DNA from: an uncultured bacterium
Lineage (GTDB): Bacteria > SAR324 > NAC60-12
Reading direction: 5' to 3'
DNA length: 24,831 bases
NCBI GenBank assembly: GCA_964010765.1
Contig: CAXGMD010000050.1
Span: 1 to 24,831, forward strand
This document shows positions 2,828-14,608 of this stretch, one piece after another. The number at the start of each line of letters is the position of its first letter. Position 1 is the stretch's first letter. The translations under genes and the position numbers were made by a program. Under the pieces are notes generated by a model. It was given only the letters and a program-made list of their open reading frames with translations. It was not told the origin of the DNA and ran no database searches.

Positions 2828-4921
2828 ATGAAAATATTTAAGTTTACACTGTATTTGCTAATTTTCTTATTTCTAATTTCTTCAAAATCGTTTTCCCAAG
2901 AACCATACATAATAACGTCAGAATCGCTTGAAATAATACCAAATAAACATCTTAGTTTCTTGGAAGGTTTTGACGAGACCGTTTCATTTGAAGTTCTAGA
3001 GAGCGTAGAGTGGTCTGACAGACTGCTTGATGCACAATCAATGGTAGATGGTTATTGGGTTCGTTTTGTAGTAAAGAACATTTTAAAAACAGATAAGATA
3101 GGGCTTTCCCATAATTTTAATTATGAAAAGAAAATATTCATTAAAAATTCATTAGGTGTCGATGAATTTAGCTATTGGAGAGCTGGCATTGATAAACATT
3201 TTGAAGAAACTCATATTGGTTCTGAATTTCGTATTAACATTCCAAAAAATGAAAAAACAATCATCTATAATTTTTTCAGAAATTATCCAGTTGATCGATT
3301 TAATTCAATGGATAATTATCATCGAATGATGATTGGTTCATGGGAATCTGTGAGAAATAAAGAATTCTTTAGACTTATAGGTAAAACAATATTTATAGCC
3401 CCAGTTTTTCTGTTTGGAATTTATTACTTTTTTGTTTATCTAATTTCAAAAGGAAATTATATTTGGCTATCTTTAGCGCTCTTACTCATATCCTTTCACG
3501 AAGTATTTGGAGTCACAGGTTTATTGACCAATCATCTGGGAATTTATTCATTCTTTCCCTCGATAGCTTCAGTAAGTGGAATGATTTTTTTTGTGCCTTT
3601 ACTATTTCTTATTTTATCACAGTTTTTCCGAAAAACTTTAAAAATAAAAGAAAAATTTCCAAAATTGAATAAAATTTATTTAGGTATTATTTGGTTTTAT
3701 ATTATAGTTGTTCTCATAAACTTTATTCTTTTACTAAATTGGCCAAATGAAGAGCAAATTAATCTGGTAAAGTATCCTCCAGATAACCTAGGTCCTGGTG
3801 TAATCAAACTTCATCAGTTCATAATACCTTTCTTCATTTTGCTTTTGATATCTATCATAGTTGCATTCTTATCTTGGCGCAAAGGCAGTTCAGCTTCAGG
3901 TTACTTATGCTTGTCTTTCTTGCTACCTTTTCTGTCGATACCTGTTGCAGCAACAACTTATCTCATATTTGATGGATTTAATTGGCATTTTTGGTCGATT
4001 ATACAACCTATTGTAGGATTTTTATTTCTGGGAATGTTTGTCACTTTTGGATTTTCTGTTGCTCAAGGCATGAATGATCTCAAACAAGAATTTATAGATA
4101 GACAAATTGAATTAAATAATGAACTTGAATCTAAGGTAAATGCTAGAACGGCTGATTTAACGAAAGCAAATTTAATGATCACTGACAGTATCAACTCTGC
4201 CAGTGCTATTCAAAACGCAATACTCCCTGAAATTAATGCTGATTCGCATGGCTTCAAAGAGTTTAAATATGTTTGGGAACCTAGAGATATTGTAGGCGGT
4301 GATTTCTACTGGATTGGTCAAAAAGAAAGCTGGACAAGTCTGATTGTTGCTGACTGTACTGGTCATGGAATCCCAGGTGCTTTTATGACGCTGATCTCAA
4401 GTACTCTGCTAGATAGAGTCGCAAACTTAAGTGATTTAAGTCAACCAGATCGAATATTAGATCAATTGGATGAACTGTTAGAAAGCACCTTAAAGTACAG
4501 AGAGGGTGGCAATACTAATTTTGGACTCGATTGTGGTATCATTTGCTTCTCTCAGAAACACAATCTTTTGCGCTATGCTGGTGCTAAGACCAATCTCTAT
4601 CAGAAACTTGATGAAGAGGTAGTTGAGATCAAGGGCGATAAGAAAAGCTTGGGATATGAAAGGAAAGAGCACCCAATCAAATTTAAAGTTAGTGAGTTTG
4701 GCTTAGACCAAAACTCTTCCTTCTTCATCTTTTCAGATGGGGTGACTGATCAAGTTGGAGGAGAGAAGAAACTGATGTATGGGAAGAAACGAGTGATTGC
4801 TCACATCAAAGAAGCAGTTGATGTCCGGTCTGCCGTCAACAATATTGTTGCTGACATCAATCAGTACCAGGCAGGACACAAGAGGAGGGATGATCTAACG
4901 CTCTTTGGATTTGCTGTCTAA
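2828..4921 (+). CDS. Membrane sensor / PP2C-type (SpoIIE/RsbU-like) serine phosphatase: signal peptide, 7TM-DISM-like extracellular domain, multi-TM region, coiled coil, SpoIIE domain
   Basis: C-terminal motifs PRDIVGGDFYW, VADCTGHGIPGAFM, GLDCG, FSDGVTDQVGG, RRDDLT. N-terminal YWVRFVVKN resembles 7TMR-DISMED2. About 7 hydrophobic segments and a LESKVNART linker. Confidence 0.88.
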   Translation: MKIFKFTLYLLIFLFLISSKSFSQEPYIITSESLEIIPNKHLSFLEGFDETVSFEVLESVEWSDRLLDAQSMVDGYWVRFVVKNILKTDKIGLSHNFNYEKKIFIKNSLGVDEFSYWRAGIDKHFEETHIGSEFRINIPKNEKTIIYNFFRNYPVDRFNSMDNYHRMMIGSWESVRNKEFFRLIGKTIFIAPVFLFGIYYFFVYLISKGNYIWLSLALLLISFHEVFGVTGLLTNHLGIYSFFPSIASVSGMIFFVPLLFLILSQFFRKTLKIKEKFPKLNKIYLGIIWFYIIVVLINFILLLNWPNEEQINLVKYPPDNLGPGVIKLHQFIIPFFILLLISIIVAFLSWRKGSSASGYLCLSFLLPFLSIPVAATTYLIFDGFNWHFWSIIQPIVGFLFLGMFVTFGFSVAQGMNDLKQEFIDRQIELNNELESKVNARTADLTKANLMITDSINSASAIQNAILPEINADSHGFKEFKYVWEPRDIVGGDFYWIGQKESWTSLIVADCTGHGIPGAFMTLISSTLLDRVANLSDLSQPDRILDQLDELLESTLKYREGGNTNFGLDCGIICFSQKHNLLRYAGAKTNLYQKLDEEVVEIKGDKKSLGYERKEHPIKFKVSEFGLDQNSSFFIFSDGVTDQVGGEKKLMYGKKRVIAHIKEAVDVRSAVNNIVADINQYQAGHKRRDDLTLFGFAV

Positions 4922-7367: not shown

Positions 7368-11217
<3,850 letters not shown>

Positions 11218-11270: not shown

Positions 11271-12335
11271 TCAGATGAATTGCCCTTGCACCACTTGAAA
11301 ACTGCAACTCTTCGTATCTAATTTTTCTGGTCGTGTTGTTGAAGTTACGAAGATCTGATTCTGCAGTTGTGCAAAGAGCCCGAGCAGACGTTGGGATACC
11401 TGCGCATCTAACTCGGAGAAAAGGTCATCAAAAATCAGTATTGGATGTAGGGAATAATTGGAGAATAATAGCTGATTTATTGCAATTTTTAAAGACAAAT
11501 TCGTGACTCTCAATTCTCCCTGAGAAAAAAAATCTCGATCAATTTTTTCATCCAGAAATAGGTGGTAATCATCACGATGAGGACCAATCAGGGCGTAACC
11601 TGAATGCAGTTCACGATCCCGCTGTTCCTCCATCATTTTCTCCAATTGTTCCGCGTCACTACACTGGACAGCAGGATGGTAGCGCAGTGATAGCTGCTCT
11701 GGTCGACCAGTAGCCATCCTGAAGAGTTCCACCAAGTGAGATAGCAGCTGTTCAGCAAAGGCTGCTCGGCGCTGGATCAATTCCCAGCCTGTACGAGCCA
11801 GGACTTGGTTCCAGGCAGAGAGCTGACGATCCTGACGCTGCCGCAGCGCAGCGTTTTTTTCAGCCAGTACCTTGGTGTAGTCCTGAAGATGACGGAAGTA
11901 GACTGGATCCAGGGTGGAGATGATTCTGTTGAAGAAGCGCCGCCGCTCTTGAGGAGGTCCTCGAAATAGCGCTACGTCCTCCGGAGTAAAACTCAGAGCC
12001 AGAAAGGAGAGGACATATTCCGAAGTGCGCTGGAACGGAGCATGATCCAGCCAAACCTGACGACCTCGGGTTGAAAGAATAATTTGCACTCGACGCAAAA
12101 CCTGCTGTTGTTCTAGCAGAGCAGTCATTCGAGCTGCGTTGGCTTCGCTGTACCAGAGTTGCTGCGTCTTGCGAGTTCGGAAGGATTCTAGATTACAGAG
12201 GTAGGCAATCGCTTCGACCAAGTTGGTTTTCCCTTGGCCGTTGTAACCGTGCAGCCAGTTGAGACCAGGTCCAAACTCAACCTGCAACTGGCGATAATTT
12301 CGAAAATGATGAAGTTCCAGCGAACGAATTACCAT
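11271..12335 (-). CDS. recF: DNA replication and repair protein RecF
   Basis: FRNY, Walker A GYNGQGKTNLVEAI, GPPQERRRF, GPHRDD, SQGE, PILIFDDLFSELD. Confidence 0.95.
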   Translation of the reverse strand: MVIRSLELHHFRNYRQLQVEFGPGLNWLHGYNGQGKTNLVEAIAYLCNLESFRTRKTQQLWYSEANAARMTALLEQQQVLRRVQIILSTRGRQVWLDHAPFQRTSEYVLSFLALSFTPEDVALFRGPPQERRRFFNRIISTLDPVYFRHLQDYTKVLAEKNAALRQRQDRQLSAWNQVLARTGWELIQRRAAFAEQLLSHLVELFRMATGRPEQLSLRYHPAVQCSDAEQLEKMMEEQRDRELHSGYALIGPHRDDYHLFLDEKIDRDFFSQGELRVTNLSLKIAINQLLFSNYSLHPILIFDDLFSELDAQVSQRLLGLFAQLQNQIFVTSTTRPEKLDTKSCSFQVVQGQFI

Positions 12336-13459
12336 TCAATGCGCAATGGCATGATGACAGCGAGGTATTCTTCATCATCTGCGGCCCTGATCACGCTCGG
12401 GCTCATTGGGTTCTTGCACTCTAGCTTGACTCGCTCAGTCTGGATTACTCCCAGCGCATCCAACAGATAGCGTGAGTTGAACCCCACCTGAAAGTCTTCT
12501 CCGCTATAATCCGCTTCCATTTCGTCGCTAACTTCCCCATATTCGGCCTTTTCGCTCTCTAGCCTTAGCTTCCCCTCGGTCAAGGTTAATTTGACCGGCT
12601 TGAGCTTTTCATAGCTGATAGAAGAGACAATCCGCAGTGCGCTGACCAAACGTTCACGATCAACAATGGCTACCAGATGATTATCCTTGGGAATGATCGG
12701 ATCACAATTGGGGAACTTCCCCTCAATCAATCGAGTCTTGAAAGAAACCTGGCTACCAACAAACTGCATCACACGGTCATCGAAGCTGATCGTGACCTCT
12801 TCTCCGAAAAGTTCGATGGCCTTACGAATCTCTCCTAACGCCTTGCGAGGAATGATTACATCAGAAACAGACTCAAAGGATGCAGACTCGACTCCCTTGA
12901 GCACTTGTGCTAAGCGGTGGCCATCTGTTGCCAACCACCTTGTCAGGTTTCCTTCCTTCGAAGAAAGGTTCACCCCCATCAAGTTTTTGCGGGATTCGTT
13001 GGTTTGTGAAGCGAACAGTGTCATGTCAATGCACTGCTTAAGATCCTGGGATGGTAGCGTTAGCGACTCTGACAACTGCTCCAACTCAGTTTGTGGATAA
13101 AGACCTACTTCCACCAAAGGTAGGCGCATCTCAGAAGCTCCACTTGTGATATGCACCCAGTGCTGCTCCGTCGAGCGGATGCGAATATCATTGCCCTGAA
13201 ACTCCCGACAGATGTCGTAGACCTTCTTTGCATTCACACAAATACTTCCGGCTTGAATCACTTCTGCTGGGAAGTGTTCGATGATGGAAATTTCATAGTC
13301 CGTTGCTGAGAACTCAGCTTCGTTATGATCTCCATCTTCTCCTGAAACAGTTCTTAGTAGAAAGTTTGAGAGAATCGGTTTGGAAGCACTCTTGTCAATG
13401 ATGGAAATGATGTTCTGAAGAGCGCTACGAAGAACTTCCTGTTGAATTAGAATTTCCAT
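12329..13459 (-). CDS. dnaN: DNA polymerase III beta sliding clamp
   Basis: PILSNFLL, ATDYE, ATDGHRLA, IIPRKAL, RLIEGKFP, GFNSRYLLDAL, C-terminal VIMPLRI; 376 aa. Confidence 0.96.
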   Translation of the reverse strand: MEILIQQEVLRSALQNIISIIDKSASKPILSNFLLRTVSGEDGDHNEAEFSATDYEISIIEHFPAEVIQAGSICVNAKKVYDICREFQGNDIRIRSTEQHWVHITSGASEMRLPLVEVGLYPQTELEQLSESLTLPSQDLKQCIDMTLFASQTNESRKNLMGVNLSSKEGNLTRWLATDGHRLAQVLKGVESASFESVSDVIIPRKALGEIRKAIELFGEEVTISFDDRVMQFVGSQVSFKTRLIEGKFPNCDPIIPKDNHLVAIVDRERLVSALRIVSSISYEKLKPVKLTLTEGKLRLESEKAEYGEVSDEMEADYSGEDFQVGFNSRYLLDALGVIQTERVKLECKNPMSPSVIRAADDEEYLAVIMPLRIEW

Positions 13460-13783
13460 ATTTTTTTATAGTCGTAGTAGTAGTCTGTCGAAAACCTGTC
13501 GAAAACCTGTCGACTGGCTTGAAATGATTCAGCTTTTATAGCTTTTTGGGGTTGTCGAAAACTTGTTCAAACTTGTCGAAAACTTGGGGAGTGTAGCAAT
13601 AAGAACAAACAATGAACAGGTTTTCGACAAGTTATCGACAGGTTTTGGAAAGATTGTCGAAAACCTGTTCAAAACTAATCTAAACTACTGAAACTAGATA
13701 GTTTTTAGATTAAATTTCAAGAGATTCAGATAAACTGCCTGTCGAAAACTTGTCGAAAACCTGTCGACTGGCTTGAAATGATT
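13460..13783. other. oriC: Probable chromosomal replication origin (oriC) with variant DnaA boxes TTTTCGACA
   Basis: T-tract 13461-13467; DnaA-trio run TAG-TCG-TAG-TAG-TAG 13469-13483; TGTCGAAAA at 13486, 13497, 13553, 13574, 13655, 13740, 13751; TTTTCGACA at 13621; TTATCGACA at 13632; immediately upstream of dnaN. Confidence 0.82.
13485..13783 (+). repeat. 45-bp direct repeat (13485-13529 and 13739-13783, 1 mismatch)
   Basis: CTGTCGAAAAC(C/T)TGTCGAAAACCTGTCGACTGGCTTGAAATGATT at both ends of the intergenic region. Confidence 0.92.
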
Positions 13784-14608
13784 TCATTTTTTGAAAAATG
13801 AAAATACTTCTTCTTGGTTCAGTGCTGTGATCAATGGGAATGCACCAACATCCTCTAGCAGGTGTATCAGAGTCCCACGTTCTTCAATCGGAGTTGAGTG
13901 GGCACCAATGAAACGAATGGCATCATCTGGAGACCATTGCTTGACAAGTTGTTGTGCAGCTATTCTATTTGGATTGATCAAGAATGGTTCAATACTGATG
14001 TCCTCCAGAGCTTCCAAAAATAGATTTTCTCGCCAGCCGTAGTGTGTGCAGCCAAGCACAACAATCACTTTTCCCGGAGAAAGTGGTGGATTGGCACCGC
14101 TCAGGAATAGTCGGATATTTTCGATTATCCGAGTTCCAGTTACATCAGAAGAGATCATGTCTGCTAAACCCGGACAGGCAATCGACCGTGTATCTGGTAG
14201 CAGTTGATCGTACACTTTGGAAGAGATTGTAGTCGGTGTTGCCAAAATAAGTAATCTGGAATATCCAAATTCCTTTGCTTTTTCAAGAACAGCTTTGCGT
14301 GTCAACTCAAGCATTCCCTGAATGGGTATTTCAGGAAGCTTAATTTCTGGTAGCAGTGCTGAGAGAGTGTGGCAGGCAACAAAGATATGATCAGGTTGGT
14401 AACTGTCTGCAAGGCGGTGTAGGAAAGTTTGAAAGACTTCCTGCTTTTCAGCTAATGACTCCATTGAGTTGTAGCTGCGTCGAGGATCAGGGGCTGCGTT
14501 GACGTAGAGTAATTCTGTATTTTTTGCTGTGGGACCAGTGGGAGCTTTCAGTAGATCAGCGCAGACAGACAGCCCTCCCAGACCTGAATCAGTGACTACT
14601 AGACGCAT
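13784..14608 (-). CDS. Aspartate/glutamate racemase family protein (MurI-like, divergent)
   Basis: DSGLGGLSV; both catalytic Cys motifs VACHT and LGCTHY; ILATPTT; IACPGLADMI. Confidence 0.82.
   Translation of the reverse strand: MRLVVTDSGLGGLSVCADLLKAPTGPTAKNTELLYVNAAPDPRRSYNSMESLAEKQEVFQTFLHRLADSYQPDHIFVACHTLSALLPEIKLPEIPIQGMLELTRKAVLEKAKEFGYSRLLILATPTTISSKVYDQLLPDTRSIACPGLADMISSDVTGTRIIENIRLFLSGANPPLSPGKVIVVLGCTHYGWRENLFLEALEDISIEPFLINPNRIAAQQLVKQWSPDDAIRFIGAHSTPIEERGTLIHLLEDVGAFPLITALNQEEVFSFFKK

Follow-up and report, generated by a model that had tools for sequence, protein, structure and literature searches.

What the repeat-rich spacer upstream of dnaN does in this uncultured SAR324 bacterium, and which protein reads its repeats, is the question raised by this locus. 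The preliminary description of the window (the whole 24,831-nucleotide stretch analyzed) had proposed a replication origin made of DnaA boxes with C changed to G at position 6, and had attributed the change to a DnaA with altered domain IV specificity or to a different initiator. We examined the spacer in its assembly (G000; 3.86 Mb, 266 contigs, 92% complete) and in relatives, together with the DnaA encoded elsewhere in the genome. The answer would place the replication origin, along with its box motif, of a marine group that is abundant but uncultured.

The box array and trios beside dnaN

The eight copies of TTTTCGACA that had been claimed are all present (13486, 13497, 13553, 13574, 13655, 13740, and 13751 on the minus strand and 13621 on the plus strand), as is the single TTATCGACA at 13632, and a word count accordingly gives nine copies of TTWTCGACA within 324 bp (13460-13783). 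The degenerate copies were likewise found, with two mismatches to TTWTCGACA at 13643 and 13666 and three at 13508, 13564, and 13762. Eight of the 13 intervals among these 14 sites measure 11 bp, in agreement with the phasing described previously, and 13460-13783 holds no exact match to TTWTNCACA, also as described. The box forms considered side by side differ at position 6: TTTTCGACA (G6), TTTTCAACA, and TTATCCACA (canonical). Nine intergenic sites of the array lie within one or two mismatches of TTATCCACA, forming the kind of box cluster expected of an oriC, and all nine strong sites carry G rather than the canonical C at position 6. The features of the spacer and its flanking genes are as follows.

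13460..13783, no strand: predicted oriC, intergenic between a racemase-like gene and dnaN, 64% A+T
13460..13468, no strand: short A/T tract from the trios to the dnaN start codon, seen in the sequence
13469..13483, plus: DnaA-trios TAG TCG TAG TAG TAG, predicted unwinding site, with three consecutive perfect trios beside the box
13486..13505, minus: two TTTTCGACA copies in tandem, with a 2-bp gap between them and another 2 bp to the trios, putative basal-unwinding-system boxes
13508..13516, minus: half box with a TCGACA core, three mismatches, in the 11-bp phase
13485..13529, no strand: first copy of the 45-bp direct repeat, matching copy 2 at 98% identity
13553..13582, minus: box, degenerate box, and box (13553, 13564, 13574)
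13590..13598, minus: candidate extended -10 of a dnaN promoter, TG-n-TACACT, matched by similar words at that position in relatives; assigned with low confidence
13621..13651, plus: group in the opposite orientation, made of TTTTCGACA, TTATCGACA, and a degenerate box
13655..13674, minus: TTTTCGACA and a degenerate box
13681..13693, minus: IHF-like site, one mismatch to the consensus
13739..13783, no strand: 45-bp direct repeat, copy 2, with boxes at 13740 and 13751 and a half box at 13762
12329..13459, minus: dnaN, beta sliding clamp, over the TIGR00663 cut-off
11271..12335, minus: recF, over the TIGR00611 cut-off
8731..11190, minus: gyrB, over the TIGR01059 cut-off
13784..14608, minus: glutamate-racemase-like gene at the spacer boundary, below cut-off

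Chance is excluded as the source of the array, given that nine copies of TTWTCGACA are observed against a Poisson expectation of 0.007 per 324 bp and that the next-best 400-bp cluster holds two of the 95 copies in the assembly. The cluster count proposed in the preliminary description thus returned this array as the sole such cluster in G000. Of the 10 copies of the longer word A[AG]GTTWTCGACA in the whole assembly, nine lie in the spacer. Even when the canonical motif is used with one mismatch allowed, the array is still the top cluster (11 sites versus 6), and the best cluster of exact canonical boxes elsewhere in G000 has three sites, apparently within an ABC-transporter-like gene on contig C16. 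The genome-wide totals are less telling: TTATCCACA is in mild excess (34 versus 22.6 expected), and the excess of TTATCGACA (36 versus 27.4 expected) is slightly below it, which counts against the G-box reading. Independent assemblies carry the same array, and a record labeled SAR324 cluster bacterium has a DnaN that is 97.9% and an origin region that is 91% identical to those of G000. The differences found in four sequencing runs (best 40 of 83) include three in the spacer (13600, 13730, and 13735), all outside the boxes.

The DnaA-trios at 13469-13483, the IHF-like site, and the 45-bp duplication did not figure in the preliminary description. The site at 13681..13693 was compared with the IHF consensus WATCARN4TTR; six of seven genus members have it at -234 relative to the dnaN start and the seventh at -248, and G000 has three HU/IHF-family genes. 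Matches to this consensus in genera with A6 boxes are partly artefacts, given that tandem A6 boxes mimic it. The 45-bp repeat also occurs in G003, G005, and G008, box copy number is altered in G002 and G004, and the repeat is unrecognizable in G001, suggesting that the array grows and shrinks in 11-bp steps. Boxes and trios are more conserved within the genus than the remaining spacer DNA. In three close genomes, 0 of 243 box and 0 of 45 trio positions changed versus 23 of 684 in the rest of the spacer; in two further genomes the counts are 14 of 162 and 0 of 30 versus 53 of 456, and in the most distant one 17 of 81 and 2 of 15 versus 114 of 228. The genes dnaN-recF-gyrB-der run on one side of the spacer, and the racemase-like gene lies on the other. 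Elsewhere in the window, a stretch of 30-34% GC that was likely acquired holds a plus-strand gene (2828-4921) for a membrane protein whose phosphatase domain is SiaA/SpoIIE-like.

The spacer upstream of dnaN is very probably the chromosomal replication origin of this SAR324 bacterium, and the earlier claim to that effect gains support from the DnaA-trio layout, from a skew switch in G000 and relatives, and from the absence of a rival box cluster. PMC8287927 defines the basal unwinding system (BUS) by a box, often tandem, with three or more NAN trios no further than 16 bp away. The spacer has this layout, with the trios at 13469-13483 ending 2 bp from the box at 13486, and it lies directly upstream of dnaN, as origins often do, with dnaA on another contig. 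A replication strand signal is present in G000, where the fourfold GC skews of plus- and minus-strand genes are anticorrelated (r=-0.64, 92 contigs). For minus-strand genes in the window, skew is +0.003 on the left side of the spacer (706 sites) and -0.111 on its right side (736 sites), a modest switch of origin polarity (p=0.03). We examined skew at dnaN in seven relatives (G009, G026, G019, G169, G001, G013, and G022); in the first five, each strand that could be tested showed a significant switch, with p from 1e-19 to 0.02. The raw cumulative skew minimum fell less than 200 bp from the dnaN start in five of the seven (G001, 11 bp; G009, 13 bp; G022, 109 bp; G019, 113 bp; G026, 173 bp) and was not near it in G013 or G169. 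The whole-genome skew check proposed earlier, carried out on 20 sampled 20-kb stretches of the single-contig G013, gave no clear pattern.

An origin beside dnaA was considered and rejected: at most one box lies within up to 400 bp upstream in all 45 dnaA genes (in G000 the view is limited to the 323 bp between dnaA and the contig end), and skew around dnaA showed no origin-type switch in any of three genomes. The canonical cluster beside dnaA that the preliminary description had named as evidence against its reading is therefore not found in these upstream regions.

We considered that the array could instead be a transcription-control region for dnaN-recF-gyrB, operated by DnaA or another regulator, rather than an origin. 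The possible extended -10 inside the array is conserved in relatives, which suggests DnaA control of dnaN-recF-gyrB transcription, and the skew switch at dnaN is significant on only one of the two strands in G013 and on no strand in G022. A scan of the spacer with the sigma-70 consensus returned no promoter. Given the skew switch in G000 and five of seven relatives, the trios, and the lack of another box cluster in the assembly, and since promoter control is in any case compatible with origin function, we regard transcription control in place of origin function as very improbable.

DnaA and position 6 of the box

If the spacer is the origin, the protein that reads it has to be sought elsewhere in the genome. 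A single dnaA gene was detected in G000, and it lies outside the window (contig C61, 19409-20932, minus strand); a search of G000 for a second dnaA or Hda gave only this one PF00308 match. Across the order, one full-length copy each was found where dnaA was found at all (35 of 44 and 16 of 19 genomes matched). One family member carries an extra, canonical-type dnaA (L034; G034:C69:1102-4590) that groups in trees with outside DnaAs; its presence there probably reflects a contaminating contig or a transfer. Of the 16 sister-family genomes that have both genes, 14 have dnaA immediately upstream of dnaN, and in the host family dnaA is no longer beside dnaN. In G000, dnaA is now upstream of a divergent gene for a type II topoisomerase B subunit (L003, 8016-9818 on C61) that scores below the gyrB and parE cut-offs.

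The protein has the four-domain architecture of DnaA, with PF00308 and PF08299 over cut-off and the profile covered from 1 to 435 of 437, and it scores 292.5 bits against TIGR00362, below the cut-off of 343.9. We used an alignment-based model (pLDDT 85.6), given that the single-sequence AlphaFold model reached a pLDDT of only 38; the model lies 1.8 A from B. subtilis domain III and matches 8btg and 8bv3, with 8btg as the top hit. Domains III and IV are under purifying selection within the genus (dN/dS of 0.06-0.08). Family DnaAs form clades of their own in a quick tree, and in the order DnaA has diverged more rapidly than DnaN: family members share 45% identity in domain III versus 65% in DnaN, the reverse of the sister order (76% versus 61%).

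The base contacts of the canonical box are made by R399, P423, D433, H434, T435, and H439 (PMC2533591 and PMC7561715). The alignment of these residues that had been suggested previously shows R399 and H434 kept and P423S, D433S, T435S, and H439N changed, that is, two of six retained. These four replacements support, at the level of sequence, the altered domain IV specificity proposed earlier. The "different initiator" alternative is less likely, given that the trios are kept, the 9-mers are near the DnaA consensus, and domain IV is under purifying selection. R399 and H434 are invariant in all 23 family DnaAs. D433 is found in none of 39 order members versus 88 of 125 other DnaAs, and T435 in one of 39 versus 57 of 125; T435S is itself common elsewhere (59 of 125). 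The 125 comparison proteins are what remained of 150 matches after 137 were kept by length and 12 probable kin set aside.

A link between these residues and base 6 was also visible outside the order. In 70 dnaA-dnaN spacers (of 91 loci; the 21 without dnaN beside dnaA were dropped), boxes paired with Thr435 had C 68 times and a purine 23 times, and those paired with other residues had C 43 times and a purine 68 times (p=3e-7); G6 was found once with Thr435 versus 12 times without it (p=0.007). Both p-values are overstated, given that the genomes include relatives and that three seeds were chosen for purine boxes, one of which supplies 4 of the 12 G. Spacers of DnaAs with the D-H-T signature (15 spacers) had no G6.

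Within the order, we tallied position 6 as TC-x-ACA words in the 300 bp upstream of dnaN, where about 3-7 per base are expected by chance. The 33 family genomes gave G 84, A 99, T 7, and C 0 (none of 190 words, with about 3 expected by chance), and 15 sister-family regions gave G 11, A 12, C 2, and T 2. The host genus (g1) is almost purely G (G 60 : A 1), g11 is almost purely A (G 2 : A 65), g12 has A 10 : G 0, and g2 and g4 are mixed. The lineage-wide change from C to G claimed earlier thus stands for the host genus, which is pure G; order-wide it does not, the change there being from C to a purine, A or G. A canonical C6 box for the sister order was an idea that we dropped, given that its DnaA has N433/T435 and that its spacers mix A6 and C6 (17 of 24 loci).

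Six family genera (g3, g5, g6, g8, g9, and g10) have almost no TCRACA words upstream of dnaN, and several of them are Ser433, which argues against a simple residue-to-base code. Their dnaN-upstream regions (L017, L025, L028, L033, L072, L104, and L105) mostly hold trio-like repeats and IHF-like sites, with words ending in AACA and no TCRACA boxes. The DnaAs of these genera carry T436A, possibly reflecting a further box shift.

Whether the host genus truly prefers G is a separate matter. DnaA specificity could merely be relaxed at position 6, with the uniform G arising from drift and local duplication or conversion of one word. Both purines occur family-wide and g2 and g4 mix them, local amplification is evident from the 45-bp duplication and the altered copy numbers in G002 and G004, and there is a weak positive correlation between G fraction and GC content (rho 0.33, p=0.054, n=34). 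Under relaxation, however, C should persist, yet it is absent from the 33 family genomes; the divergent G001 retains G in all nine counted boxes; and GC content is insufficient as the sole cause, since g12 has a higher GC than g1 and still has only A. We consider relaxation an unlikely, if sensible, account and lean toward a true preference for G.

A metagenome scan for trios beside two tandem G6 boxes returned 41 stretches, seven of them beside dnaN and all seven from genus g1; the other 34 had no dnaA or dnaN neighbor. A purine-tolerant scan of species genomes gave at least 120 matches. Among the matches listed, 25 lie beside dnaN, and these include Clostridia, Kiritimatiellia, and others with A6 boxes, with two having a G6 box beside the trios; the DnaAs of those two outside origins have S433 or N433. 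An unrelated origin in Kiritimatiellia (L288, G061) has G 4, A 3, and C 0 at position 6 and a DnaA with S433/A435, a possible convergence. In a Pseudobdellovibrionaceae dnaA-dnaN spacer (L175) the trios face dnaA, not dnaN, and the boxes mix C6 and A6. From residues and boxes taken together, DnaA is the probable binder of the TTWTCGACA boxes.

The ATP site of DnaA and a proposed mechanism

The loss of ATP-switch residues in the only DnaA found is a larger surprise than the box variant, and it was absent from the preliminary description. Compared with B. subtilis DnaA, the G000 protein keeps Walker A (Lys), I190, R202, and R206 and carries D214E, D248N, R260T, R264K, R313C, K222S, and T225C. 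The usual set of ATP-site motifs is thus not intact: Walker B has gone from DD to ED, sensor I is N, box VII is T, the arginine finger is K, and sensor II is C. R313 is kept in 6 of 23 family members, 16 of 16 sister-family members, and 124 of 125 others, and R264 in 13 of 23, 16 of 16, and 125 of 125; the arginine finger is therefore not Arg in 10 of the 23, being Lys in G000. R260 is kept in 0 of 23, 0 of 16, and 118 of 125, and D248 in 0 of 23, 6 of 16, and 118 of 125. Among 90 further outside DnaAs, 89 keep both R264 and R313, and the remaining one is truncated. Four other family DnaAs (L047, L052, L053, and L059) have DR, GN, or RN at Walker B, two of them with Leu as the arginine finger, and are under purifying selection.

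In what follows, domain III residues of E. coli and B. subtilis are presumed equivalent by motif. In E. coli the sensor 2 residue R334 acts in hydrolysis and initiation can proceed without it, whereas ATP-dependent activation requires R285 and helicase loading requires R281 (PMC5742627). Sensor II loss would fit an initiator without an off-switch. The arginine finger is another matter, being essential for BUS unwinding in B. subtilis and likewise in the Gram-negative DnaAs tested (PMC8287927), so that the G000 DnaA, with Lys at this place, might fail to unwind. Arginine-finger loss is what our reading chiefly leaves unexplained, and it is the strongest reason to suppose that the site is the origin but that its 11-bp repeats are read by another initiator, a plasmid-type Rep or an unknown protein, with the degenerate DnaA serving as a regulator or a helicase-loading helper.

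Several observations fit such an initiator: residues that model organisms require for filament formation and unwinding are missing from this DnaA, dnaA no longer lies at the origin in the host family, DnaA is the faster-evolving protein in the order, and a plasmid-derived chromosomal initiator has been reported for Fusobacteriaceae. Against it, the trios, a DnaA-specific element, are kept beside the boxes, and the repeats are 9-mers one base off the DnaA consensus. Domain IV remains under selection with R399 and H434 fixed, and the sister family has dnaA beside the same words with both arginines intact. G000 has no match to Rep3_N (one Rep family, searched in a 92% complete assembly). DnaB is present, and DciA (PF05258) had no match in the same assembly. 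We judge another initiator to be improbable, and we return to DnaA as the likely protein acting at this origin.

We propose that DnaA domain IV would bind the TTWTCGACA boxes and that loss of Asp433 and Thr435 would have removed the preference for C6, allowing purines (the contact of these residues with base 6 is one that we infer), with G then presumably fixed in the host genus. With the array possibly bent by an IHF/HU-type protein, DnaA would load from the tandem boxes (13486-13505) and polymerize along the trios, after which the duplex would open next to dnaN and DnaB would be loaded. DnaA likely binds nucleotide but would do so without the usual ATP-hydrolysis off-switch, given that Walker A is kept while substitutions have hit sensor I, sensor II, box VII, and the arginine finger; replication timing would then rest on another control. 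That the spacer is very likely the origin and its TTWTCGACA repeats likely the sites of the cell's own divergent DnaA is a joint reading in which we have good confidence. The fullest version, in which SAR324, a widespread marine lineage, pairs a classical box-and-trio origin with an initiator whose site has been rewritten (C6 to G via Asp433/Thr435 loss), which is without the ATP-hydrolysis switch and arginine finger that are considered essential, and which initiates without a DnaA-ATP/ADP cycle, is offered tentatively, at somewhat short of even chances.

With a site that is likely rewritten and an ATP switch that has lost residues, this SAR324 bacterium may time its replication differently. 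Should a DnaA without arginine finger and sensor II indeed work, it would challenge the idea that bacterial initiation universally needs ATP-driven filament formation and hydrolysis, and initiation without the DnaA-ATP/ADP cycle would offer a natural test of both the recognition code and the dispensability of the cycle. Relatives form a graded series (C, A/C, A/G, and pure G) paralleled by changes at positions 433 and 435, so that a few purified domains would suffice to test the recognition code of DnaA.

Comparison with known systems

The literature cited in this section is represented by the accessible portions of each source. In largely open-access full-text literature, we found neither TTWTCGACA as a lineage DnaA box, nor an SAR324 origin described with DnaA or oriC, nor a DnaA naturally without arginine finger and sensor II. 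SAR324 does not appear in those portions of PMC9825612, PMC13643167, and PMC12371093, nor in the corresponding part of Table S1 of PMC8287927, and the motif is not listed in those of PMC10225481 or two of its small supplements. The same part of Table S1 has no entry for TTATCGACA; its one instance of TTTTCGACA is a mismatched box in Alicyclobacillus, whereas the A forms give 191 and 58 text matches. Origin finders run with the E. coli motif would score the SAR324 boxes only as mismatched.

An iteron (Rep) origin has a Rep gene near iterons of 17-22 bp. Unlike such an origin, the present array has a repeat unit of 9-12 bp, and G000 has no Rep3_N match. Compared with the canonical box TTWTNCACA (PMC2533591, PMC7561715), eight of nine positions are shared and R399 and H434 are kept; the differences are C6 to G in all nine strong sites and P423S, D433S, T435S, and H439N in DnaA.

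G6 is not as unique as it looks, given an in silico precedent in Dehalococcoides and the commonness of A6 boxes. The Dehalococcoides box TTATCGAAA was proposed by Ori-Finder from genome comparison only (PMC2275245) and is the standard motif for that genus in Table S1 of PMC8287927; it shares G6 with the G000 box, also has A8, and belongs to a different phylum. The A6 form TTWTCAACA is the standard motif for Borrelia, Chlamydia, and Lawsonia (Table S1 of PMC8287927; PMC2671203), sharing a purine at position 6 with G000; A6 dominates the SAR324 genera g11 and g12, and the host genus has G. The epsilonproteobacterial box, with a TTCAC core, was tied to helix-5 changes at 435 and 438-439 and tested in vitro (PMC5043019). 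Both cases pair a lineage-specific box with helix changes, but there position 5 changed and C6 and the HD dyad were kept. In the same source, H. pylori DnaA does not bind a G6 site that also carries A5, which weakens the G6 reading.

The spacer also resembles the BUS oriC (PMC8287927; PDB 8btg), with its tandem boxes, short gap, at least three TAG trios, and A/T tract, all upstream of dnaN. Unlike in that system, the G000 boxes have G6, dnaA is unlinked, and DnaA is without R264, R313, R260, D248, K222, and T225. Taken by itself the box variant is modest; it is its pairing with an initiator lacking the ATP switch that specialists would find surprising.
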